NCBI RefSeq assembly: GCF_058153355.1
Contig: NZ_CM177019.1
Direction: 5' to 3' (one strand)
DNA length: 64,000 nt
Shown in pieces: positions 23,523 through 34,692 of this stretch. The notes beneath the pieces were generated by a model. It was given only the letters and a program-made list of their open reading frames with translations. It had not been told where the DNA came from and searched no databases. The position numbers were made by a program, and so were the translations under genes. Position 1 is the stretch's first letter. Every line of letters begins with the position of its first letter.

Positions 23523-23567
23523 TCACGTCCGCCCGTGGGGAAACTCACGGGCAAAGGGAGAACAACG

Positions 23568-24953
23568 ATGAGTCACATCACAACGGAAGATCCGGCTACT
23601 TTACGTCTGCCCTTTAAAGAGAAACTCTCTTACGGTATCGGCGATCTGGCCTCTAACATCCTGCTGGATATCGGCACGCTTTATCTTTTGAAGTTTTATA
23701 CCGACGTTCTGGGGCTGCCCGGTACCTATGGCGGCATTATCTTTTTGATTTCGAAGTTCTTTACTGCGTTTACCGATATGGGTACCGGCATCATGCTCGA
23801 TTCCCGACGCAAGATCGGTCCAAAAGGTAAGTTCCGTCCTTTTATTCTGTATGCGTCATTCCCGGTCACCTTACTGGCGATCGCCAACTTTGTCGGCACA
23901 CCGTTTGATGTCACCGGTAAAACGGTGATGGCCACTATCCTGTTTATGCTCTACGGGCTGTTTTTCAGCATGATGAACTGCTCTTATGGCGCAATGGTCC
24001 CCGCTATTACCAAAAACCCCAACGAACGCGCATCACTGGCGGCATGGCGTCAGGGTGGCGCTACATTGGGCCTGCTGCTTTGTACGGTGGGATTCGTGCC
24101 GGTTATGAATCTTATCGAGGGTAATCAGCAACTTGGCTATATCTTCGCCGCCACGCTGTTTTCACTGTTCGGCCTGCTGTTTATGTGGATCTGCTATTCG
24201 GGCGTGAAAGAGCGTTATGTCGAAACGCAACCTGCAAATCCGGCGCAAAAGCCTGGCTTGTTGCAGTCTTTCCGCGCAATTGCGGGTAACCGCCCACTGT
24301 TCATTCTGTGTATTGCCAACCTCTGCACCTTAGGGGCGTTTAACGTCAAGCTCGCCATCCAGGTCTATTACACCCAGTACGTACTTAACGATCCCATCCT
24401 GTTGTCGTATATGGGATTTTTCAGCATGGGCTGTATTTTCATCGGCGTGTTCCTGATGCCTGGCGCAGTCAGACGTTTTGGTAAGAAGAAGGTCTATATC
24501 GGCGGTCTGCTGATCTGGGTGCTGGGCGATCTGCTCAACTATTTCTTCGGCGGCGGCTCGGTTAGCTTTGTGGCGTTCTCCTGCCTGGCATTCTTCGGCT
24601 CGGCGTTTGTTAACAGCCTGAACTGGGCACTGGTTTCTGACACCGTCGAGTACGGCGAGTGGCGCACCGGTGTGCGTTCGGAAGGTACGGTCTACACCGG
24701 CTTCACCTTCTTTCGCAAAGTTTCTCAGGCGCTGGCAGGCTTCTTCCCTGGCTGGATGCTGACGCAAATCGGCTATGTACCAAACGTCGCCCAGGCTGAC
24801 CACACCATTGAAGGGTTGCGCCAGCTGATCTTCATCTACCCAAGCGCACTGGCGGTAGTCACCATTGTTGCGATGGGTTGCTTCTACAGCCTGAACGAGA
24901 AGATGTACGTCCGCATTGTAGAAGAAATAGAAGCCCGTAAACGCACGGCATAA
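23568..24953 (+). CDS. yihP: GPH-family sugar/sulfonate transporter YihP
   Basis: Track ORF 23535..24953; ATG at 23568 with AAGGGAG Shine-Dalgarno; paralogous to the downstream yihO. Confidence 0.85.
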   Translation: MSHITTEDPATLRLPFKEKLSYGIGDLASNILLDIGTLYLLKFYTDVLGLPGTYGGIIFLISKFFTAFTDMGTGIMLDSRRKIGPKGKFRPFILYASFPVTLLAIANFVGTPFDVTGKTVMATILFMLYGLFFSMMNCSYGAMVPAITKNPNERASLAAWRQGGATLGLLLCTVGFVPVMNLIEGNQQLGYIFAATLFSLFGLLFMWICYSGVKERYVETQPANPAQKPGLLQSFRAIAGNRPLFILCIANLCTLGAFNVKLAIQVYYTQYVLNDPILLSYMGFFSMGCIFIGVFLMPGAVRRFGKKKVYIGGLLIWVLGDLLNYFFGGGSVSFVAFSCLAFFGSAFVNSLNWALVSDTVEYGEWRTGVRSEGTVYTGFTFFRKVSQALAGFFPGWMLTQIGYVPNVAQADHTIEGLRQLIFIYPSALAVVTIVAMGCFYSLNEKMYVRIVEEIEARKRTA

Positions 24954-24993
24954 ATAATAAACAACGCCCTGCGGGGCGTTATAAGGAGTGATT

Positions 24994-26397
24994 ATGTCTG
25001 ACCATAATCCACTGACATTAAAACTGAATCTGCGGGAAAAAATCGCTTATGGCATGGGCGACGTCGGTTCGAATTTAATGCTTAGCATCGGCACTCTGTA
25101 TCTCCTCAAATTTTATACCGATGAATTAGGGATGCCTGCTTACTATGGCGGGATTATCTTTCTGGTGGCGAAATTCTTTACCGCGTTTACCGATATGCTC
25201 ACCGGATTTTTACTCGACTCGCGGAAAAATATTGGGCCTAAAGGCAAATTTCGTCCCTTTATTTTATATGCAGCGGTTCCGGCGGCGTTAATTGCAACGC
25301 TCCAGTTTATCGCCACCACTTTTAGTTTGCCGATTAAAACGACGATTGCCACCGCGCTGTTTATGATGTTTGGACTTTCATACAGTCTGATGAACTGCTC
25401 GTATGGCGCGATGATCCCAGCAATTACCAAAAACCCCAATGAGCGCGCGCAGCTTGCGGCTTACCGCCAGGGTGGTGCAACCATAGGGCTATTGATTTGT
25501 ACCGTAGCATTTATTCCATTGCAGTCGCTTTTTTCTGACTCCACTGTCGGTTATGCCTGCGCGGCACTGATGTTCTCCATTGGTGGCTTTATTTTTATGA
25601 TGCTGTGCTACAGAGGCGTCAAAGAGCATTATGTGGACACGACGCCAACCGGACATAAAGCCAGTATTCTCAAATCTTTTTGCGCGATATTTCGTAATCC
25701 GCCATTGCTGGTTTTATGCATTGCTAACCTGTGTACCCTGGCGGCATTTAATATCAAACTGGCAATTCAGGTCTATTACACCCAGTATGTGCTGAATGAT
25801 ATTAATTTATTGTCGTGGATGGGATTCTTCAGTATGGGATGCATCCTCATCGGCGTATTGCTGGTGCCATTAACTGTAAAATATTTTGGTAAAAAACAGG
25901 TTTATTTAGCTGGCATGGTGCTGTGGGCGGTGGGGGATATCCTGAATTATTTCTGGGGCAGTAACTCTTTCACTTTCGTCATGTTCTCTTGTGTCGCCTT
26001 TTTTGGTACGGCCTTTGTAAACAGCCTGAACTGGGCGCTGGTACCGGATACCGTAGATTATGGTGAATGGAAAACAGGTATACGTGCCGAAGGTTCTGTT
26101 TATACCGGTTATACCTTCTTTCGTAAAATTTCAGCCGCACTTGCTGGCTTCTTGCCAGGCATTATGCTGACGCAAATCGGTTATGTTCCCAACATCGCGC
26201 AAAGCGATGCAACATTACAGGGTTTGCGTCAGCTCATTTTTATTTGGCCTTGTGCGCTGGCGATAATTGCTGCATTGACGATGGGATTCTTTTACACGCT
26301 CAATGAAAAACGTTTTGCGATGATTATTGAGGAAGTTAACCAACGCAAAAATAAAGAAATTAAGACAGAAGAAAAAACGGCTTCCGTAACGTTATAA
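24994..26397 (+). CDS. yihO: GPH-family sulfoquinovose transporter YihO
   Basis: Track ORF 24988..26397; ATG at 24994 after AAGGAG. Confidence 0.85.
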   Translation: MSDHNPLTLKLNLREKIAYGMGDVGSNLMLSIGTLYLLKFYTDELGMPAYYGGIIFLVAKFFTAFTDMLTGFLLDSRKNIGPKGKFRPFILYAAVPAALIATLQFIATTFSLPIKTTIATALFMMFGLSYSLMNCSYGAMIPAITKNPNERAQLAAYRQGGATIGLLICTVAFIPLQSLFSDSTVGYACAALMFSIGGFIFMMLCYRGVKEHYVDTTPTGHKASILKSFCAIFRNPPLLVLCIANLCTLAAFNIKLAIQVYYTQYVLNDINLLSWMGFFSMGCILIGVLLVPLTVKYFGKKQVYLAGMVLWAVGDILNYFWGSNSFTFVMFSCVAFFGTAFVNSLNWALVPDTVDYGEWKTGIRAEGSVYTGYTFFRKISAALAGFLPGIMLTQIGYVPNIAQSDATLQGLRQLIFIWPCALAIIAALTMGFFYTLNEKRFAMIIEEVNQRKNKEIKTEEKTASVTL

Positions 26398-26463
26398 AAA
26401 CAATAGCCGCTATGACCATCTACAGGGATGGCGGCCTTCCTACATATAAAAAATGGATTTAAT

Positions 26464-27156
26464 ATGAAAAAGTTAAATGCAATAATTTTATTATCCTCTC
26501 TGACTTCCGCATCGGTATTCGCAGGCGCATACGTCGAAAACAGGGAGGCATATAATCTCGCCTCCGATCAGGGCGAGGTTATGCTACGTGTGGGTTATAA
26601 CTTCGATATGGGCGCGGGTATCATGTTAACCAATACCTACAACTTTCAGCGAGAAGATGAACTAAAACATGGATATAACGAAATCGAAGGTTGGTATCCT
26701 TTATTTAAACCAACCGATAAATTAACCATCCAGCCCGGTGGCTTAATTAATGATAAGAGCGCCGGTTCCGGTGGTGCTGTTTATCTGGATGTTAACTACA
26801 AATTTGCCCCGTGGTTTAACCTGACGGTACGCAACCGTTTTAACCATAATAACTACAGCACAACCGATTTAAACGGTGATCTGGATAATAATGACAGCTA
26901 CGAGATTGGTAACTACTGGAACTTTATTATTACCGATAAGTTCTCATATACCTTTGAACCGCATTATTTTTATAATATTAATGATTTCAACAGCAGCAAT
27001 GGCACCAAGCATCACTGGGAAATCACTAACACCTTCCGTTACCGAATTAATGAGCACTGGCTGCCCTATATTGAATTGCGCTGGTTAGACCGCAACGTCG
27101 AGCCGTACCACCGCGAGCAAAACCAGATCCGTATCGGGACGAAGTATTTCTTCTGA
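26464..27156 (+). CDS. ompL: Outer membrane porin OmpL
   Basis: Track ORF 26428..27156; signal peptide MKKLNAIILLSSLTSASVFA; C-terminal YFF beta-barrel signature. Confidence 0.85.
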   Translation: MKKLNAIILLSSLTSASVFAGAYVENREAYNLASDQGEVMLRVGYNFDMGAGIMLTNTYNFQREDELKHGYNEIEGWYPLFKPTDKLTIQPGGLINDKSAGSGGAVYLDVNYKFAPWFNLTVRNRFNHNNYSTTDLNGDLDNNDSYEIGNYWNFIITDKFSYTFEPHYFYNINDFNSSNGTKHHWEITNTFRYRINEHWLPYIELRWLDRNVEPYHREQNQIRIGTKYFF

Positions 27157-27168
27157 TGTAAAAATGTA

Positions 27169-27198
27169 AAAAGCCGCTGATATTTAAGCGGCTTTTTA
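27169..27198 (+). terminator. Rho-independent terminator after ompL
   Basis: Hairpin aagccgct-gatattt-aagcggctt followed by a T-run. Confidence 0.7.
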
Positions 27199-27336
27199 CA
27201 CAGATATTCACAATATAAATAACTCCCCATAATTATATAACCGCGTTGATTATAAAATATTCCTCGTCCTCTCTATCAAAGTCATTGACTACCAGGTAAG
27301 ATCTTTTCCACTGCAACACTCACAAGGAATGAGAAA

Positions 27337-28185
27337 ATGGAAAAGAAATTTTTTATGGATTGGGATAATGAAATCCCGCAAGAAGAGTTTATTAACAATA
27401 TTTTAGCCGATGAAGACCTGCCTAAAATCCGCTCTCTGATTATTGGTCGTTGGGGGGAGTGCTGGGATGAGGAAAGTTGCCAACCAATAATCGACATGTT
27501 TGTTGAACATGCCGAACGCTTTGCTCATCTCGAATCCCTATTTATCGGCGATATGGAAAGCGAAGAGTGTGAAATTTCGTGGATAAAACAAGGGGATTAT
27601 TCTCGTCTGTATGCTGCGCTGCCGAACCTGAAAAAGCTGACAATTAAAGGTACTCAGGGCCTGGAACTGGGAGAAATCGCCCATGACAAACTGGAGCATC
27701 TGGAAATTATCTCTGGCGGTACGCCGTGTGACGTGTTCGCCTCATTGCAAAATGCCCAACTGCCTGCGTTAAAAACACTTATCGTTTATATTGGCGTTGA
27801 GAATTATGGTTTTGATGCATCGCTGGATATCGTAATGAAGCTGGCGTCGAAATCCCTCTTCCCGAGCCTGACGCATCTTGGCCTGGTGAACAGCGAAGAG
27901 CAAAACGAAATCGTCCGCCGCGTGCTGGAAAGCGACATTCTGCCGCAACTGGAAGTGCTGGCACTCTCCTGCGGTACGCTTACCGACGAAGGTGCAGAGC
28001 ATCTTCTCAAACATGCCGATCGCCTTAGCCATCTGAAACTGCTGGATTTGTACCATCATTACCTGACAGAAGAGATGCAGAAAAAACTGCAAAAAACACT
28101 GACATGTACTCTCGAATTATCAGAAGCGCTAACGCCTGAAGTCTATGATGACGAAATTTATATGCATGCGATGTATACCGAATAA
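27337..28185 (+). CDS. Leucine-rich-repeat (ribonuclease-inhibitor-like) cytoplasmic protein; first gene of non-K-12 operon
   Basis: ORF track 282 aa; repeated LxxLxxLxL units (LPNLKKLTIKG, LEHLEIISG, LPALKTLIVY, FPSLTHLGLVN, LPQLEVLALSCGTLTDEGAEHLL, LSHLKLLDL); AAGGA Shine-Dalgarno. Confidence 0.7.
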   Translation: MEKKFFMDWDNEIPQEEFINNILADEDLPKIRSLIIGRWGECWDEESCQPIIDMFVEHAERFAHLESLFIGDMESEECEISWIKQGDYSRLYAALPNLKKLTIKGTQGLELGEIAHDKLEHLEIISGGTPCDVFASLQNAQLPALKTLIVYIGVENYGFDASLDIVMKLASKSLFPSLTHLGLVNSEEQNEIVRRVLESDILPQLEVLALSCGTLTDEGAEHLLKHADRLSHLKLLDLYHHYLTEEMQKKLQKTLTCTLELSEALTPEVYDDEIYMHAMYTE

Positions 28186-29232
28186 ATGACATTTATTGGG
28201 AGAGAGTCATCTCTCCCATTATTTATCACAGAAAAGGAATTCTTCGTGATTACGCTAATTGGTCATCCTGAAAGCAAACGCACATTTTATTTTTGCCAGG
28301 CAGCGTCACGCTTACAGGAACATATCAACGTAGTGAGCTATGATCAAGCACTTACCCTGCTCTTAAATAAAGGCATGGTAAAAATCGATCCCCCCTTACA
28401 TCAGGAAACAGATATTCGCTTAATTAATACGGTTAGCCAAAACTATATTACTTTTTTACAAAAAATGGCTACCAGAAGGGAGATCCGTTTTATTAACTCA
28501 CCAGAAGGTATTATTCATCTTCTGGATAAACGCCACTGTAAGCAACGATTAGTCGAACACGCGATCCCGACACCGCCAATATTAGCGGATGATATCCGTA
28601 GCTACGATCAACTGATCGCCTGTATGCGCAGCGAAAAGGTTTATCGCGTGTTTATTAAGCCGAATTTCGGATCAGGGGCCGCCGGGGTGCTGGCTTTGAG
28701 TCTACATCCCGGCGATAACCGTCAGGCGCTTTATTGCGCCATCCAGGTTGCAGGTGACAGGCTGGTGAACAGTAAACATATTATCCGCTATGAAAACAGC
28801 GGTGATATTACGTTGATTGTGAATGCTATTTTACAACAAGACAATATTATCGAACGCTGGCTGGCAAAAGCCAGAGTGGGCAATAAAAGCTACGATTTAC
28901 GCATAGTGTACGTTAATGGTGAAATCGTCTGGCGGGTTGTCAGAACATCATCACAGCCGATCACCAATTTGCATCTGCAAAATGAAGCCATTCGTTTTGC
29001 CGATCTTAATTTACCCGCAGAAAAAGTGGCTGACATTGACACGCTTTGTCTCAACGCCATGAAACTCTACCCGGACGTACACATTGCCGGGCTTGATGTA
29101 TTACTCACGCAAAACTTAACCCCCTATATTATCGAAATTAACGGCCAGGGCGATCTTATTTATCAGGACACCTGCGAACAAAATATGATTTATCAACGCC
29201 AGATTCAGGTAATGAGAGAACACCATGTATAA
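28186..29232 (+). CDS. ATP-grasp ligase, RimK-like
   Basis: ORF track 348 aa; KPNFGSGAAGV and EINGQGD ATP-grasp motifs; alternative GTG start at 28246 with AAAGGAA Shine-Dalgarno. Confidence 0.75.
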   Translation: MTFIGRESSLPLFITEKEFFVITLIGHPESKRTFYFCQAASRLQEHINVVSYDQALTLLLNKGMVKIDPPLHQETDIRLINTVSQNYITFLQKMATRREIRFINSPEGIIHLLDKRHCKQRLVEHAIPTPPILADDIRSYDQLIACMRSEKVYRVFIKPNFGSGAAGVLALSLHPGDNRQALYCAIQVAGDRLVNSKHIIRYENSGDITLIVNAILQQDNIIERWLAKARVGNKSYDLRIVYVNGEIVWRVVRTSSQPITNLHLQNEAIRFADLNLPAEKVADIDTLCLNAMKLYPDVHIAGLDVLLTQNLTPYIIEINGQGDLIYQDTCEQNMIYQRQIQVMREHHV

Positions 29233-30097
29233 CGTAACAGACGAAGTCCCGGAAAATACCCGCACGGCAATCCATTCCTGCGATGGCGAAATCAATATGA
29301 ATGATTTGATAGCCAGGGAGGCGAATGTTCTGTTTGTAGTGCTTGATTCCCTGCGTTTTGATATTGCGTTTCAGGAACAAGAGGCGGGCAATACGCCGAA
29401 CATTAACCGCTATGGTCGCTGGATAAAGTGCGAAGCCGCTGGCAATTTTACCTGGCCTTCGCATCATTCGATGTTTTCTGGTTTTATGCCTAAGCCGCTG
29501 GAAGCCGCACCGGGCCATTCAATGCTCTTTTTTCCCAAAGATATTGGCTTAGGGCGTTTAGGGCCAAAAAATGCATTCGCATTCAGCGAAGAGACGTGGA
29601 TTAAAGGGCTGGAAAACAAAGGTTACCGCACTATCTGCGTGGGTGGCATCTCCTTTTTTAATAACCGCTCAGGGATGGGAAAAGTGTTCCCGGCGATGTT
29701 TAAAGAGAGTTACTGGTATCCTAATTTCTCCTGCACGGTGAAAGAGAGCATGGATAATCAGCTCACCTTAATTAACAAAAAGGTGAACGCTGAACAGCCG
29801 CTGATGATGTATATCAATATCGACACCATTCATTATCCGAATCATTTTTATATTGAAAATGCCAAACCTGGCGATACGGTAGAAACTCACGCCGCTGCCC
29901 TGCATTATATTGATGCCAGAATCGAAAAACTTTTCGATATCTTTCGGCAAACCGGGCGGGAAACGTTAGTTATTCTCTGTTCCGATCATGGCACCTGCTA
30001 CGGGGAAGACGGTAAATATTTCCACAGTTTTAACCATCCGATTGTGAATACCGTACCCTATTTTCACTTTGTGTTAGACGGCAAAGACCATGAATAA
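29225..30097 (+). CDS. Alkaline-phosphatase-superfamily metalloenzyme, type I phosphodiesterase / nucleotide pyrophosphatase (NPP)-like
   Basis: ORF track 290 aa; VVLDSLRFD metal-ligand motif, NFTWPSHHSMFSG (Thr nucleophile context), C-terminal CSDHG. Confidence 0.65.
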   Translation: MYNVTDEVPENTRTAIHSCDGEINMNDLIAREANVLFVVLDSLRFDIAFQEQEAGNTPNINRYGRWIKCEAAGNFTWPSHHSMFSGFMPKPLEAAPGHSMLFFPKDIGLGRLGPKNAFAFSEETWIKGLENKGYRTICVGGISFFNNRSGMGKVFPAMFKESYWYPNFSCTVKESMDNQLTLINKKVNAEQPLMMYINIDTIHYPNHFYIENAKPGDTVETHAAALHYIDARIEKLFDIFRQTGRETLVILCSDHGTCYGEDGKYFHSFNHPIVNTVPYFHFVLDGKDHE

Positions 30098-31232
30098 TGA
30101 ATCGATTTATCAGCAATATATGTACAGTTACCCGCATAAGACCGCTTATCGGGAATTAAACAATATTGCTTTTGCGGATGTGAAATCGCGTATTTACGAG
30201 CATAAAACACATCTCTATATTCATATGCCTTTTTGCCAGAGCCGCTGCGGGTTTTGTAATCTCTTTACCTGCACGGGGGCAGACAATGCCTTTATCGACA
30301 ACTACATAGAAGCAATTATTATCCAGGCCCGGCAAATGCAACTTGCGCCTGTAGACTGGGCCAGTTTTACCATTGGCGGCGGTACGCCACTACTGCTTAA
30401 TACCGGGCAACTGTCACGGTTGTTTCGCGGGGTGTTTGACGAATTACAGGTCGATGCGCAGATTTTTAAGGCAATTGAAACATCGCCTTCCGATACCACC
30501 GCCGAAAAGGTCGCGTTATTGCGCCAGCTTGCGGTAAGCCGCGGCAGGGGTAATTTCCCGATAATCAATATTGATATTATTTACGGTATTCCTGGTCAAA
30601 CAGCCGCAAGTTTAATGGCGTCGCTTAATCAGGCATTAGATTATCAGCCTGACGAACTTTTTTTGTACCCGCTGTATAACATGCCGCGCCAGCCGGATAT
30701 GTATAGCCTCTATATTGAAGCCCGCGATCGCTTATTGCATGAAGGTTATACGCAAACGTCAATGCGCCGTTTTGTGCGGGTGAATAATGAGTCGACGGCT
30801 GAAAGTTGTGGCTTTGAAAATTCGCTGGCGCTTGGCGCGGGCGGGCGCAGTTATCTTGGCAATTTACATTACTGCACGCCGTGGTCGCAAAACCAGCCCG
30901 CATCGCGGCAAATTGTCACGGATTTTATCGCCCGGCCAGATAAGACCCAGATTCACCACGGCTATGTACTTTCACAAGCAGAAATGAAGCGGCGTTTTAT
31001 TATCAAGAATCTCTTTTTCTATAAGGGGCTTTCGTTACGGGATTATCAGCATCAGTTCTTCTCTGAGGTATTAAGCGATTTTCCCCTGCTGGGAGATTTC
31101 ATCAAACAAGATTACTGCCACCAGCAGGATAATCGTATTCTGCTCACCGCGCAGGGTTTAGCGCTTTCGGACCAGCTTGGCCCGCTGTTTATCTCCCCGG
31201 AAGTTCGCAGGCTGGAGACGCATAAACGATGA
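30090..31232 (+). CDS. HemN-like radical SAM enzyme (HemN/HemW/class C rSAM methyltransferase family)
   Basis: ORF track 380 aa; YIHMPFCQSRCGFC CxxxCxxC motif, FTIGGGTP, IDIIYGIPGQT; parallels hemN in this window (YVHIPFCHKLCYFC). Confidence 0.8.
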   Translation: MNNESIYQQYMYSYPHKTAYRELNNIAFADVKSRIYEHKTHLYIHMPFCQSRCGFCNLFTCTGADNAFIDNYIEAIIIQARQMQLAPVDWASFTIGGGTPLLLNTGQLSRLFRGVFDELQVDAQIFKAIETSPSDTTAEKVALLRQLAVSRGRGNFPIINIDIIYGIPGQTAASLMASLNQALDYQPDELFLYPLYNMPRQPDMYSLYIEARDRLLHEGYTQTSMRRFVRVNNESTAESCGFENSLALGAGGRSYLGNLHYCTPWSQNQPASRQIVTDFIARPDKTQIHHGYVLSQAEMKRRFIIKNLFFYKGLSLRDYQHQFFSEVLSDFPLLGDFIKQDYCHQQDNRILLTAQGLALSDQLGPLFISPEVRRLETHKR

Positions 31233-32086
31233 CGCTCAAGCAGATCCAGACGCTGATTTATCGCGGCGAGATAAAGTCGTGTAATTATCGCTGTGGTTAT
31301 TGCCCTTTTCATAAACAAGACCGCAATGATAAACAGCAGGATGAAGTGGCATTATGGCGCATGGTTGAACATTTACCGGCGCTGGGTTCACCATTAAATG
31401 TATTTATTACGCCCTACGGCGAAGCATTGCGTTATCGTTATTATATGGCGGCGATGGCGGAAATCAGCCGCTATTCCCATGTGCAGGCGGTGGGTATTCA
31501 GACCAACGCCTCTTTTAATTTATCCACCTTAGTCGCGACTTTTCAGCACTCTCAGGGCGATTTAGCAAAGCTGCGGCTGTGGTGTTCGTTTCATCCTTCC
31601 CAGGTCAGTAAAGAAGTTTTCCTTAAACAGTTACTGGCAATTAAGGACACGGGGATTACCTGTTCTGTGGGGGCCGTCGCCAGCGTAGCCGACTATGACG
31701 AATTACAGTGGTTACGCGCGCATCTTCCTCCCGATATCTATTTCTGGCTAAACGCCAATGAGCGCGATAAAAGGCCCACCAGCGACGAAAGAAATAGCCA
31801 GTTTCAGTTGCTGGACCCGCTTTATTATCTGGAAACCAGCCTCTGGCCTGCCAATGTCGAGTTTTGTCTGGGCGGCAAAAAGAGCGTGTTTATGAATGCT
31901 GATGGCGATCTCTTCGCCTGTAATATCAGCAAAATTAAGATTGGCAATTTATATCAACAGCAACTTTCATCTCCGGCTTGTATGTCCAGGCACTGTCACT
32001 GTTATCTGGCTTATCACCTGCGTGAGGATATTCCGGCCCTCTCACAATTTGATGCTGAACGCTGCTTTCGGATCTTCTCGTTATGA
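31229..32086 (+). CDS. Small radical SAM-like protein with viperin-like cluster motif
   Basis: ORF track 285 aa; N-terminal CNYRCGYCPFH (CxxxCxxC); C-terminal cysteines CNISK...CMSRHCHC; ATGA overlap with the upstream gene. Confidence 0.55.
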   Translation: MTLKQIQTLIYRGEIKSCNYRCGYCPFHKQDRNDKQQDEVALWRMVEHLPALGSPLNVFITPYGEALRYRYYMAAMAEISRYSHVQAVGIQTNASFNLSTLVATFQHSQGDLAKLRLWCSFHPSQVSKEVFLKQLLAIKDTGITCSVGAVASVADYDELQWLRAHLPPDIYFWLNANERDKRPTSDERNSQFQLLDPLYYLETSLWPANVEFCLGGKKSVFMNADGDLFACNISKIKIGNLYQQQLSSPACMSRHCHCYLAYHLREDIPALSQFDAERCFRIFSL

Positions 32087-32778
32087 TCTGGCGGTTAATC
32101 GCGCTCGATTTAGACGGCACATTGCTGAACAGCAAGAAGATGATTTCCCCTGCGTCTGTTTCGGCACTGCAAAGCGCACAACAGGCAGGTGTGAAGATTA
32201 TCCTTGCCACCGGACGTTCGCACAGCAAAGCCCTGCCTTATTACCAACAATTGCAGTTAACCGAGCCGATGATTTGCTGTAACGGCAGCTATCTTTATCA
32301 TCCGCGCCAGCGGCAAATATTGCGTCCGCTGGCGCTTGATATCCACAAGGTGGAACAACTACGACTCTGGTTTTCACAACAAATATTGCAGCCAAATATT
32401 TATACGTACGATGATTTTGTTTTGCAGATTAGCCTGATACACCGCAAGACTTCGTTATTGCGCCAGACAGAGGAATTTGCCCGGCAAGAATTATCGCTGG
32501 CCTGTAGCTGGTCCTGGCATCATCAACTGGATATTACTCAGGCGGGGTGCGATAAAGGCAAAAGTCTGCTCTGGTATGCCCAGCAGCAAAATATCGCGCT
32601 GGATGAAATTATTGCCTTTGGCGACAACGATAATGATGCGGGGATGCTGCGGATGGTAGGCAAAGGGATTGCGATGGGCAATGGCAGTTCGCTGGCAAAA
32701 GTCAGTGCTGACCGCGTTATTGGTCACAACAACACAGATGCTATTGCGGATTTTCTTGATGCGCAGGGTTTCAGATGA
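32083..32778 (+). CDS. HAD-superfamily Cof-type (IIB) phosphatase
   Basis: ORF track 231 aa; LIALDLDGTLL (DxDGT) and FGDNDNDAGM motifs. Confidence 0.8.
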   Translation: MIWRLIALDLDGTLLNSKKMISPASVSALQSAQQAGVKIILATGRSHSKALPYYQQLQLTEPMICCNGSYLYHPRQRQILRPLALDIHKVEQLRLWFSQQILQPNIYTYDDFVLQISLIHRKTSLLRQTEEFARQELSLACSWSWHHQLDITQAGCDKGKSLLWYAQQQNIALDEIIAFGDNDNDAGMLRMVGKGIAMGNGSSLAKVSADRVIGHNNTDAIADFLDAQGFR

Positions 32779-32821
32779 CGCCTGATGCGATGCTGGCGCA
32801 TCTTATCAGGCCTACAAAAGC

Positions 32822-32851
32822 AAAAAACCTGCCATCGCTGGCAGGTTTTTT
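32822..32851. terminator. Bidirectional Rho-independent terminator between the island operon and typA, next to a REP-like element
   Basis: aaaaaacctgccatcgctggcaggtttttta hairpin flanked by A- and T-runs. Confidence 0.75.
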
Positions 32852-32868
32852 ATGACTAAAAAACGAAA

Positions 32869-34692
32869 TTAATCGTCTTTCGGTGCGCGGTTGGCGCGAC
32901 GACGATCGTTTTCCGTCAGGTGACGTTTACGAATACGGATAGAGGTCGGAGTCACTTCTACCAGTTCGTCATCATCGATGAACTCCAGAGCTTGTTCCAG
33001 AGTCATGCGGATAGGCGGAACCAGAACAACGGCTTCGTCAGTACCGGAAGCACGCATGTTGGTCAGTTTCTTACCGGTCAGACAGTTTACAGTCAGGTCG
33101 TTAGAGCGGCTATGAATACCGATAATCTGACCTTCGTAAACTTCTGCACCGTGACCGAGGAACAGCTTACCGCGATCCTGCAGACCGAACAGCGCGAACG
33201 CGACCGCTTTACCCTGACCGTTAGAGATCAGTACACCGTTCTGACGCTGTCCCACTTCGCCCGGACGTACGTCGTCGTAGTGGCTGAAGGTGGAGTACAG
33301 CAGACCAGTACCGGAAGTCATGGTCATGAACTCAGAACGGAAGCCAATCAGACCACGGCTTGGGATCACGTAGTCGAGACGTACGCGGCCTTTACCGTCT
33401 GGATTCATGTTTTTCAGGTCGCCTTTACGTTCGCCCAGCGCCTGCATCACAGAACCCTGATGCTGTTCTTCAACGTCCAGAGTCACGTTTTCATACGGCT
33501 CTTGTTTACGACCGTCGATTTCACGGAAGATAACTTTCGGACGGGATACCGCCAGTTCGAAACCTTCACGACGCATGTTTTCGATCAGAACAGACAGGTG
33601 CAGTTCGCCACGACCAGAAACGCGGAACGCATCGGCGTCTTCAGTTTCTTCTACGCGCAGCGCAACGTTGTGTACCAGTTCTTTGTTCAGACGATCCAGG
33701 ATCTGACGAGACGTTACGAACTTACCTTCTTTACCGCAGAACGGCGAGGTGTTAACGCAGAAGAACATAGAAACGGTCGGCTCATCAACGGAGAGTGCCG
33801 GCAGCGCTTCAACGTTTTGCGTGTCGCAAACGGTGTCAGAAATGTTCAGTTCGCCCAGGCCCGTGATCGCCACGATATCGCCAGCTTCCGCCAGATCGGT
33901 TTCGATACGTTCCAGACCGAGGTGGCCCAGCACTTTACCGACTTTCGCGTTGCGGGTTTTGCCTTCGCTATCGATGATAGTAACTTGCTGGTTCGGCTTC
34001 ACTTTACCGCGCTTGATGCGGCCAATGCCGATAACGCCAACATAGCTGTTGTAATCGAGCTGAGAAATCTGCATCTGGAACGGACCGTCAAGGTCAACGT
34101 CCGGCGCAGGAACGTGGTCAACAATTGCCTGATACAGCGGGGTCATGTCTTCCGCCATATCTTCGTGGTCCAGACCGGCGATACCGTTCAGCGCAGAAGC
34201 GTAAACGATCGGGAAGTCCAGCTGCTCGTCGGTCGCGTCGAGGTTAACGAACAGGTCGAATACCTGATCCACAACCCAGTCAGGACGCGCGCCAGGGCGG
34301 TCAACTTTGTTGATAACAACAATCGGCTTCAGGCCATAAGCAAACGCTTTTTTGGTTACGAAGCGCGTTTGCGGCATCGGGCCGTCAAATGCGTCAACCA
34401 CCAGCAGCACTGAGTCTACCATGGACATTACACGTTCAACTTCACCACCGAAGTCGGCGTGCCCCGGGGTATCAACGATGTTGATACGGTAATCATTCCA
34501 TTTGATAGCGGTGTTTTTCGCGAGGATGGTAATCCCACGCTCTTTCTCCAAATCGTTGGAGTCCATCACGCGCTCTTGGGTTTCGGCACGAGAGTCGAAC
34601 GTACCAGATTGTTGGAGCAGCTTGTCTACCAGGGTGGTTTTACCATGGTCTACGTGCGCGATGATGGCGATATTACGCAATTTTTCGATCAC
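32869..34692 (-). CDS. typA: Ribosome-associated translational GTPase BipA/TypA
   Basis: ORF track 607 aa, [26 protein letters not shown]... Confidence 0.95.

Follow-up and report, generated by a model that had tools for sequence, protein, structure and literature searches.

What does a leucine-rich-repeat (LRR) protein do at the head of a bacterial operon whose other genes encode enzymes? The question is raised by a gene at 27337-28185 on the + strand of a stretch of DNA of 64,000 nucleotides (nt; assembly GCF_058153355.1, contig NZ_CM177019.1), which in its entirety is called the window below. The gene starts with ATG and encodes a protein of 282 amino acids (aa) with nine LRRs of irregular length; a ridge on it is conserved, and the acidic cap at its C-terminus has the final residues ...YMHAMYTE. 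It is followed by five genes, encoding an ATP-grasp ligase (STM4014), a hydrolase (STM4013), two radical S-adenosylmethionine (SAM) enzymes (STM4012 and STM4011) and a phosphatase, with which it makes up the cassette discussed here. The protein matches the NCBIfam model NF038076, 'STM4015 family protein', with 323.1 bits against a cut-off of 275, and the alignment is full-length (residues 4-281 on profile positions 4-289 of 290). Homologues were found in 2296 50%-identity clusters (E<=1e-3) of a library of 1.8 billion proteins, and RefSeq WP_103253699.1 from E. coli strain 24A16CRGN010, annotated as an STM4015 family protein, has 100% identity to it. Judged by these sequence matches the open reading frame (ORF) is a real gene, and its coordinates and the length of its product are those given in an earlier note on this DNA that had been made from the sequence alone.

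Databases already list the sequence and the name of its family, as well as the cassette and the fold. A search of the full-text literature (STM4011-4015/SEN3800; 2RA8/BfR43/Q64V53; ATP-grasp with radical SAM and LRR) found no functional study of the cassette; STM4015 and STM4013 are mentioned once each, the former in a table of positive selection and the latter as an antisense sigma-54 site. The cassette as a whole matches no characterised system. The combination of an invariant C-terminal glutamate with a tight pairing to a RimK/LysX-like ATP-grasp ligase suggests that the pathway uses the LRR protein itself as its substrate or carrier. We tentatively favour, at somewhat less than an even chance, the reading that it is ligated at Glu282 and that the attached group may then be tailored by the other enzymes of the cassette.

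The terminal glutamate and the neighbouring ligase

The tail of the LRR protein (residues 262-282, + strand 28120-28182) ends in Glu282, encoded by the GAA codon at 28180-28182. In an alignment of 23 sequences (A1) neither T281 nor E282 varies and M279 hardly does, and in a wider alignment of 109 sequences with 35% mean identity (A2) E282 occupies one of only 7 invariant columns. Glutamate is the last residue in 140 of 144 full-length representatives of 50% clusters, and the remaining four have aberrant C-terminal sequences that are possibly truncated. The tail motif of the family can be written [R]-Y-[VPI]-[AM]-[VIL]-[STGA]-E-COOH, and the stretch that precedes it contains 31% Asp/Glu, compared with 16% in the body of the protein. 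A trivial origin of the terminal residue, as a by-product of the ATGA overlap between the stop codon and the start codon of the next gene, was considered and rejected. At loci that lack the 4-nt overlap the glutamate codon is GAA (25) or GAG (16), and all three stop codons are used, which argues for selection on the amino acid and not on an overlapping start codon. In multidomain relatives the STM4015 module is always the last one, the additional WGR, TPR, LRR or KOW modules or tandem copies being N-terminal to it, so that a free C-terminus is preserved.

The gene that follows encodes the STM4014 ATP-grasp ligase, assigned as RimK/LysX-like by NCBIfam and Pfam matches and by an AlphaFold2 model. 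It ends at 29232 on the + strand, and its start is ambiguous between an ATG at 28186, immediately after the stop codon of the LRR gene, and a GTG 60 nt further on at 28246, which has AAGGA ahead of it; the homologues in RefSeq use the later start, and the first 20 residues of the long form have a predicted local distance difference test (pLDDT) score of 51-63. In 72 of 74 species-level genomes the LRR gene is directly followed by an ATP-grasp gene, with a 1- or 4-nt overlap in 50, and the two genes remain neighbours at rearranged loci. Six genomes of an uncultured lineage labelled 'Eubacterium sp.' (L022, L026, L033, L040, L041 and L069) have only this pair at the locus (e.g. L033, 9950-11864), followed by genes for a thiD-like kinase, pyruvate kinase and dipicolinate synthase.

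Among curated families STM4014 is nearest to MptN, RimK, LysX and CofF (NCBIfam, E 1e-10 to 1e-7), in each of which the site of ligation is a terminal carboxylate of the glutamyl type. The score against rimK_fam is 38 bits, with a cut-off of 143, and STM4014 forms a separate, divergent clade; Iyer et al. 2009 reportedly defined an ATPgrasp_ST family. The AlphaFold2 model (pLDDT 92.1) retrieved in order the ArgX-LysW complex (3VPB), PsnB, DcsG, the RimK-RpsF complex (5ZK6) and the LysX/ArgX-LysW-gamma-AAA complex (5K2M), and also resembles, like PsnB, another macrocyclase of ribosomally synthesised and post-translationally modified peptides (RiPPs), MdnB. In 5K2M the substrate sits on the C-terminal Glu53 of LysW (PMC12998189), and RimK is described, in a reference cited by PMC8939145, as adding glutamate to the C-terminus of S6.

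Proposed ligation chemistry and its precedents

In the mechanism that we propose, E282 at the end of the acidic, structured cap would be activated as an acyl-phosphate by the adjacent ATP-grasp enzyme, and an amine, either an amino acid or a phosphorylated or nucleotide-linked amine, would be joined to it, as LysX and ArgX do on LysW and RimK does on S6. After this step the attached group, or else the tail, could be tailored by both radical SAM enzymes and both phosphoesterases, with the conserved LRR ridge as a putative docking surface for the cassette enzymes, and the tethered group may either stay on the protein or be released. The presence of two phosphoesterases suggests that the ligated group would carry a phosphate or a nucleotide. 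Taken to its full extent, the cassette would represent an unrecognised protein-templated pathway, in which a glutamate-loaded LRR protein undergoes radical SAM and phosphoesterase remodelling to give a new C-terminal modification or a carrier-assisted route to a new metabolite; this fuller proposal we regard as rather unlikely.

LysW is a zinc-ribbon protein of about 54 aa with an EDWGE tail. In the LysW/LysX-ArgX system the C-terminal glutamate of this protein is the attachment point, and a RimK-family ATP-grasp enzyme is encoded beside it. STM4015 shares the conserved terminal glutamate and the acidic C-terminal region, and would share the attachment point under the proposal. The ATP-grasp enzyme beside it resembles ArgX, LysX and RimK by fold and by weak HMM matches that fall far below the cut-offs of those families; LysW complexes of ArgX and LysX are at or near the top for the STM4014 model, and LysX is among its family matches. 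In contrast to LysW, STM4015 is a 282-aa LRR protein with a tail of the ...TE or ...[SG]E type and no zinc ribbon, and no match to LysW was obtained with NCBIfam or Pfam. The downstream enzymes of the LysW system act on the tethered group (PMC12998189). These tailoring enzymes are a kinase, a reductase, an aminotransferase and an M20 hydrolase, whereas the STM4015 cassette has radical SAM enzymes and phosphoesterases and no evident release enzyme. The second precedent is RimK with S6, together with TTL/TTLL and the tails of tubulin, where an ATP-grasp enzyme acts on the C-terminal glutamate of a folded protein. RimK and its complex with RpsF are among the best structural matches of STM4014, and rimK_fam is among the family matches. 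However, no radical SAM or phosphoesterase partners accompany RimK and S6, and rimK and the gene for S6, a ribosomal protein, are not known to form a dedicated cassette.

Several observations weigh against the proposal that the LRR protein is ligated at Glu282. Compared with the PDB as a single sequence and as a profile, STM4014 gives only weak matches, to CdnC, Ddl and LysX (E 0.003-0.1), so that a fold search was needed, and in that search the D-Ala-D-Ala ligases score almost as well as LysX and RimK. The assignment of the modelled enzyme to the LysX/RimK subclass is for these two reasons suggestive only. The tail of the LRR protein is ordered in the AlphaFold2 model (pLDDT >90), whereas the tails of LysW and S6 are flexible. 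One of the 74 genomes (L083) has no detectable adjacent ATP-grasp gene, also when searched with a hidden Markov model (HMM) built from alignment A3, and one relative (L092, described below) lies outside any cassette. No obvious amidase or peptidase for release of a product is found in the cassette, and the carrier proteins known to us are all far smaller than an LRR protein of 280 aa.

The cassette occurs in Salmonella, in some E. coli, in Bacteroides fragilis and in many gut Lachnospiraceae, and the invariant glutamate beside a LysX/RimK-like ligase turns a 'conserved hypothetical' protein of these bacteria into a specific and cheaply testable hypothesis. If the proposal is true, the C-terminal ligation and carrier chemistry of LysW, S6 and tubulin would be extended to a scaffold made of LRRs and to tailoring by radical SAM enzymes, and a modification or metabolite of gut bacteria that is unknown so far would be indicated. 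If the LRR protein is not a carrier, the cassette would still offer a clean case of a bacterial cytoplasmic LRR protein as the subunit of an enzyme complex.

Fold and conserved surface of the LRR protein

The LRR protein is acidic (52 Asp+Glu and 23 Lys+Arg) and contains 15% leucine. Its nine repeats of 21-34 aa start at residues 28, 62, 95, 116, 142, 175, 202, 230 and 253, and every one of them opens with the pattern [LF]PxLxxLxI/L; the earlier note had counted at least six LRR-like units, which proves to be conservative. No LRR model of Pfam reaches its gathering threshold, the best being PF24758 with 18.4 bits against a cut-off of 27, so that the assignment relies on the structure and the repeat pattern. 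The scores fall below threshold because the repeats are too irregular and atypical for sequence models. The AlphaFold2 model, for which an alignment of 109 sequences was used as input, has a mean pLDDT of 97.8 and a predicted template modelling score (pTM) of 0.94, and consists of nine short parallel strands alternating with helices, with a small beta hairpin at the C-terminal end. The top Foldseek match is PDB 2RA8 (E 4e-26, template modelling (TM) score 0.90, root-mean-square deviation 1.8 A), and the matches after it are exclusively LRR proteins of the helical, ribonuclease inhibitor (RNI)-like/F-box class (TIR1, COI1, NLRC4, NLRP3, FBXL, ribonuclease inhibitor). As modelled, the STM4015-family protein is a soluble LRR solenoid. 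No signal peptide or hydrophobic segment was detected by Kyte-Doolittle (KD) analysis (maximum KD(11) in the first 45 residues 0.58, maximum KD(19) anywhere 1.06), and no enzymatic domain by Pfam, NCBIfam or PADLOC. The earlier note's picture of a cytoplasmic LRR protein that lacks both a signal peptide and an enzymatic motif is thus borne out by the structure prediction, the hydropathy values and the family searches.

The structure 2RA8 is an uncharacterised structural-genomics entry of 2007 for Q64V53 from Bacteroides fragilis, and it is a true homologue (phmmer E 1.6e-71, residues 3-282) from the same cassette, with the same C-terminal ...M-x-T-E. Its native C-terminal Glu is residue 354, ahead of the presumed His-tag (355-362). 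It has, like some other homologues, about 80 extra N-terminal residues, which correspond to a WGR domain in P0056, P0066 and P0071. No homology to a characterised housekeeping protein has been found. The best structural matches outside the family are the RNI-like and F-box LRR proteins (TIR1, COI1, FBXL, the NLR proteins and ribonuclease inhibitor), which share a solenoid with helices on the convex side and to which a weak Pfam match of the F-box/FBD type also points; yet the identity is 12-19% and the TM score 0.4-0.58. STM4015 differs from them by the absence of an F-box, NACHT or other partner domain, by its irregular repeats and by the family-specific ExSWI and C-terminal glutamate. The IpaH/SspH/SlrP effectors of Shigella and Salmonella are likewise LRR proteins of enteric bacteria. 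However, STM4015 has neither a NEL E3-ligase nor any other Pfam domain beyond the weak LRR matches, and it is encoded in a chromosomal operon of metabolic type with homologues in non-pathogenic Clostridia and soil bacteria. The LRRs of the IpaH type are short LPX repeats, whereas those of STM4015 are long and helical and belong to another LRR class.

A conserved ridge of Gly, Ser, Trp, Tyr and Asp residues runs along the loops that follow the beta strands (G37/W39, G71-D72, E79-x-S81-W82-I83, G105, G127-G128, G153/Y157-G158, S211-x-G213/D217/G219 and H241). The binding side is conserved and no hypervariable or diversifying surface was seen on it. The ridge would suit a different function of the protein, in which the LRR protein is not modified but acts as an adaptor or scaffold subunit that binds the ATP-grasp enzyme, and maybe other enzymes, and holds the complex together or recruits a separate protein or small molecule as substrate. 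The C-terminal glutamate would in that case be a docking or regulatory element, for instance a pseudo-substrate in the active site of the ligase. LRRs are protein-binding modules, the modules fused at the N-terminus (WGR, TPR, LRR, KOW) are binding modules as well, the tail is structured and not floppy, and both the coupling within the operon and the two-gene module would suit a heteromeric enzyme equally well. A parallel exists in eukaryotes, where the TTLL1 tubulin polyglutamylase complex includes an LRR subunit, LRRC49. An unmodified adaptor offers, however, no specific explanation for a final Glu in about 97% of diverse members whose tails otherwise vary, nor for the constant C-terminal position of the module. 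Furthermore, at the loci compared no conserved gene for a third-party substrate lies beside the cassette. We regard an adaptor role as the main alternative, somewhat less likely than ligation at Glu282. The earlier note had proposed a recognition or scaffold component for the enzymes downstream; the tie to these enzymes holds, as the cassette is kept together across phyla, whereas the pairing of the C-terminal glutamate with the ATP-grasp enzyme had been missed.

The cassette in the window and in other genomes

In the window the six genes of the cassette abut or overlap by 0-8 nt between two hairpins. The upstream boundary is formed by a GC-rich stem of 15 pairs with A/T runs on either side (27164-27201, reported on the - strand) between ompL and the LRR gene, which is the terminator of ompL, and the downstream boundary by a hairpin at 32821-32852 between the HAD gene and the convergent typA, so that the LRR gene leads the operon, as the earlier note had it. 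A candidate sigma-70-like promoter on the + strand (27207-27236, TTCACA-18-AATTAT, 9/12 matches) lies about 100 nt before the LRR start; such sites are no more numerous in the region than expected from shuffled sequence, and the candidate is weakly suggested by its position. Among the five downstream genes four partner families score above the NCBIfam cut-offs, and RefSeq annotates the same operon likewise. A small unannotated precursor ORF within the cassette was considered and rejected, since the genes abut or overlap in the window and there is no universal gap.

The gene after STM4014 (29225-30097, +) encodes STM4013/SEN3800, which belongs to the alkaline-phosphatase/sulfatase superfamily of hydrolases. 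It contains NFT[WY]PSH, a motif that in the extended form NFT[WY]PSHxxMF[AS]G is present in 64 of 72 family members. Its Thr occupies the position at which sulfatases of this superfamily carry the Cys or Ser that is converted to formylglycine, and NPP-type phosphodiesterases have T-F-P-N-H there. This argues for phosphoryl transfer or phosphodiesterase chemistry in STM4013 and not for a sulfatase. The last gene (32083-32778, +) encodes a Cof-type HAD-IIB phosphatase, assigned by NCBIfam and Pfam, and is part of the cassette.

The two radical SAM enzymes are encoded between these genes, the HemN-like STM4012 at 30090-31232 and STM4011 at 31229-32086, both on the + strand. STM4011 has a CxxxCxxC near its N-terminus and an auxiliary-cluster motif Cx9-15Gx4C of the SPASM/twitch type, and its weak family matches are mostly to maturases of proteins or peptides. 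Two radical SAM enzymes, one of them with a motif typical of peptide maturases, could mean that the LRR protein is a precursor with a giant leader. The tail, as core peptide for a product resembling a RiPP or a cofactor, would be cross-linked or otherwise modified by radical SAM chemistry, at the aromatics in positions -8 and -6 and at the Glu in position -1, and the product would then be excised (cf. PqqE-PqqA and MftC-MftA). The conserved aromatic and terminal Glu that the tail retains, and the likeness of the ATP-grasp model to PsnB and MdnB, would be in line with it. On the other hand, the aromatic at -6 is not universal, since the enteric and Lachnospiraceae type has Asn or His there, and the tail caps the solenoid as an ordered element. 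PqqA and MftA are short leader-core peptides, and a folded LRR protein of 260 aa with a conserved surface of its own is unlike any known leader. The cassette also lacks a conserved protease, peptidase, exporter or transporter at the loci compared, and the module of LRR and ATP-grasp genes occurs without radical SAM genes nearby. An excised core peptide is for these reasons improbable.

In the strain of the window STM4012 has 380 aa compared with 412 aa in other E. coli copies, owing to an in-frame deletion of 96 bp with its junction at 30543/30544. The deletion removes 32 residues, among them the segment RVSIGVQSF, which is conserved even in a homologue of 37% identity. STM4012 is thus probably inactive in this strain and the pathway probably defective, and the cassette is possibly decaying here.

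A pattern scan of about 100,000 genomes, each from a different species, gave relatives in at least 506 of them; as the pattern was built on alignment A1, it samples the ...MLTE subfamily only, and the best 80 loci, mostly of Lachnospiraceae, were kept. All four enzymes are present at 50 of the 61 loci with enough downstream DNA. The cassette was also found in metagenome contigs of Clostridia, in a Bacteroidota-like metagenome-assembled genome (MAG), where a WGR domain is fused to the LRR protein, in soil and Janthinobacterium-type lineages and in a marine contig. The conservation of the cassette across phyla supports a functional link between the LRR protein and the downstream enzymes. In most complete loci of Clostridia and of the Bacteroidota-like type STM4011 has about 500 aa because an HAD domain is fused to it, while enterics have a separate HAD gene, and in another lineage an unrelated HAD-IA enzyme takes the HAD position (window 32083-32778; L003 14430-15944; L006 8389-9897; L010 7839-8597). 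That the phosphatase is present as a gene of its own, as a fusion or as a replacement across lineages indicates that it is a genuine sixth function of the cassette, and the exchange of HAD-IIB for HAD-IA is, judged from these gene arrangements, a non-orthologous replacement of a needed phosphatase step. In the marine (TARA) contig (L093, 1073-9995) three tandem LRR paralogues, ending in ...RYVAIGE, ...RYVAVGE and ...RYMAVWE, precede a single set of ATP-grasp, alkaline-phosphatase-type and two radical SAM genes. Two of the paralogues (598 and 608 aa) are internal duplications of the module, and the arrangement would fit a common glutamate handle on variable bodies.

The genes that flank the cassette are housekeeping genes that differ from host to host. 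This bears on the possibility, also raised in the earlier note, that the LRR protein is an effector, an immunity factor or an anti-phage sensor that recognises a foreign or host protein, with the enzymes as output or toxin arm. LRRs have sensing roles in NLR/STAND immunity, and NLRC4 and NLRP3 are among the structural neighbours. Moreover, one Clostridia lineage has an nSTAND NTPase-TPR gene after its cassette, and the orphan relative L092 lies amid SMI1/KNR4 and AAA_21/RloB genes. None of the six cassette proteins matches a defence family, however (PADLOC with PADLOC-DB v2, 0 families at E<=0.01), and a role in defence was dropped on this ground. The host-dependent housekeeping flanks, the lack of a signal peptide and of a NEL or toxin domain, the conserved instead of diversifying binding side, the absence of the nSTAND neighbour from the other loci examined and the finding of one relative in 2.9 million viral contigs point the same way, and we regard this possibility as very improbable. 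The single viral locus is distant and again consists of LRR and ATP-grasp genes; with one locus in this number of contigs a phage-borne cassette was rejected.

In the Clostridia lineage mentioned (L003-L005, 15960-18875) the nSTAND-type NTPase with TPR, which is split or fused, lies directly after the cassette. The orphan of L092 (8001-10370) is a protein of 789 aa; an STM4015 module with the ending ...YPMLTE makes up its last 280 residues, and its N-terminal 500 residues have no Pfam match. Small unknown ORFs, an AAA_21/RloB pair and SMI1/KNR4 immunity-like genes surround it.

Within E. coli the cassette is present in 157 of 5426 complete genomes, always chromosomal and in single copy, which agrees with the rarity claimed in the earlier note. 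Its alleles fall into two groups, one about 98% and the other about 95% identical to the window. In the window the cassette occupies the slot between ompL and typA/bipA (26428-34692), where K-12 (L095, 4060447-4063512) has yihL-yihM-yihN. Further upstream, on the strand of the cassette (23535-26397), lie ompL and two paralogous genes of the sulfoquinovose locus, yihP and yihO, for transporters of the major facilitator superfamily (MFS). Between these three genes and the cassette stands the hairpin at 27164-27201.

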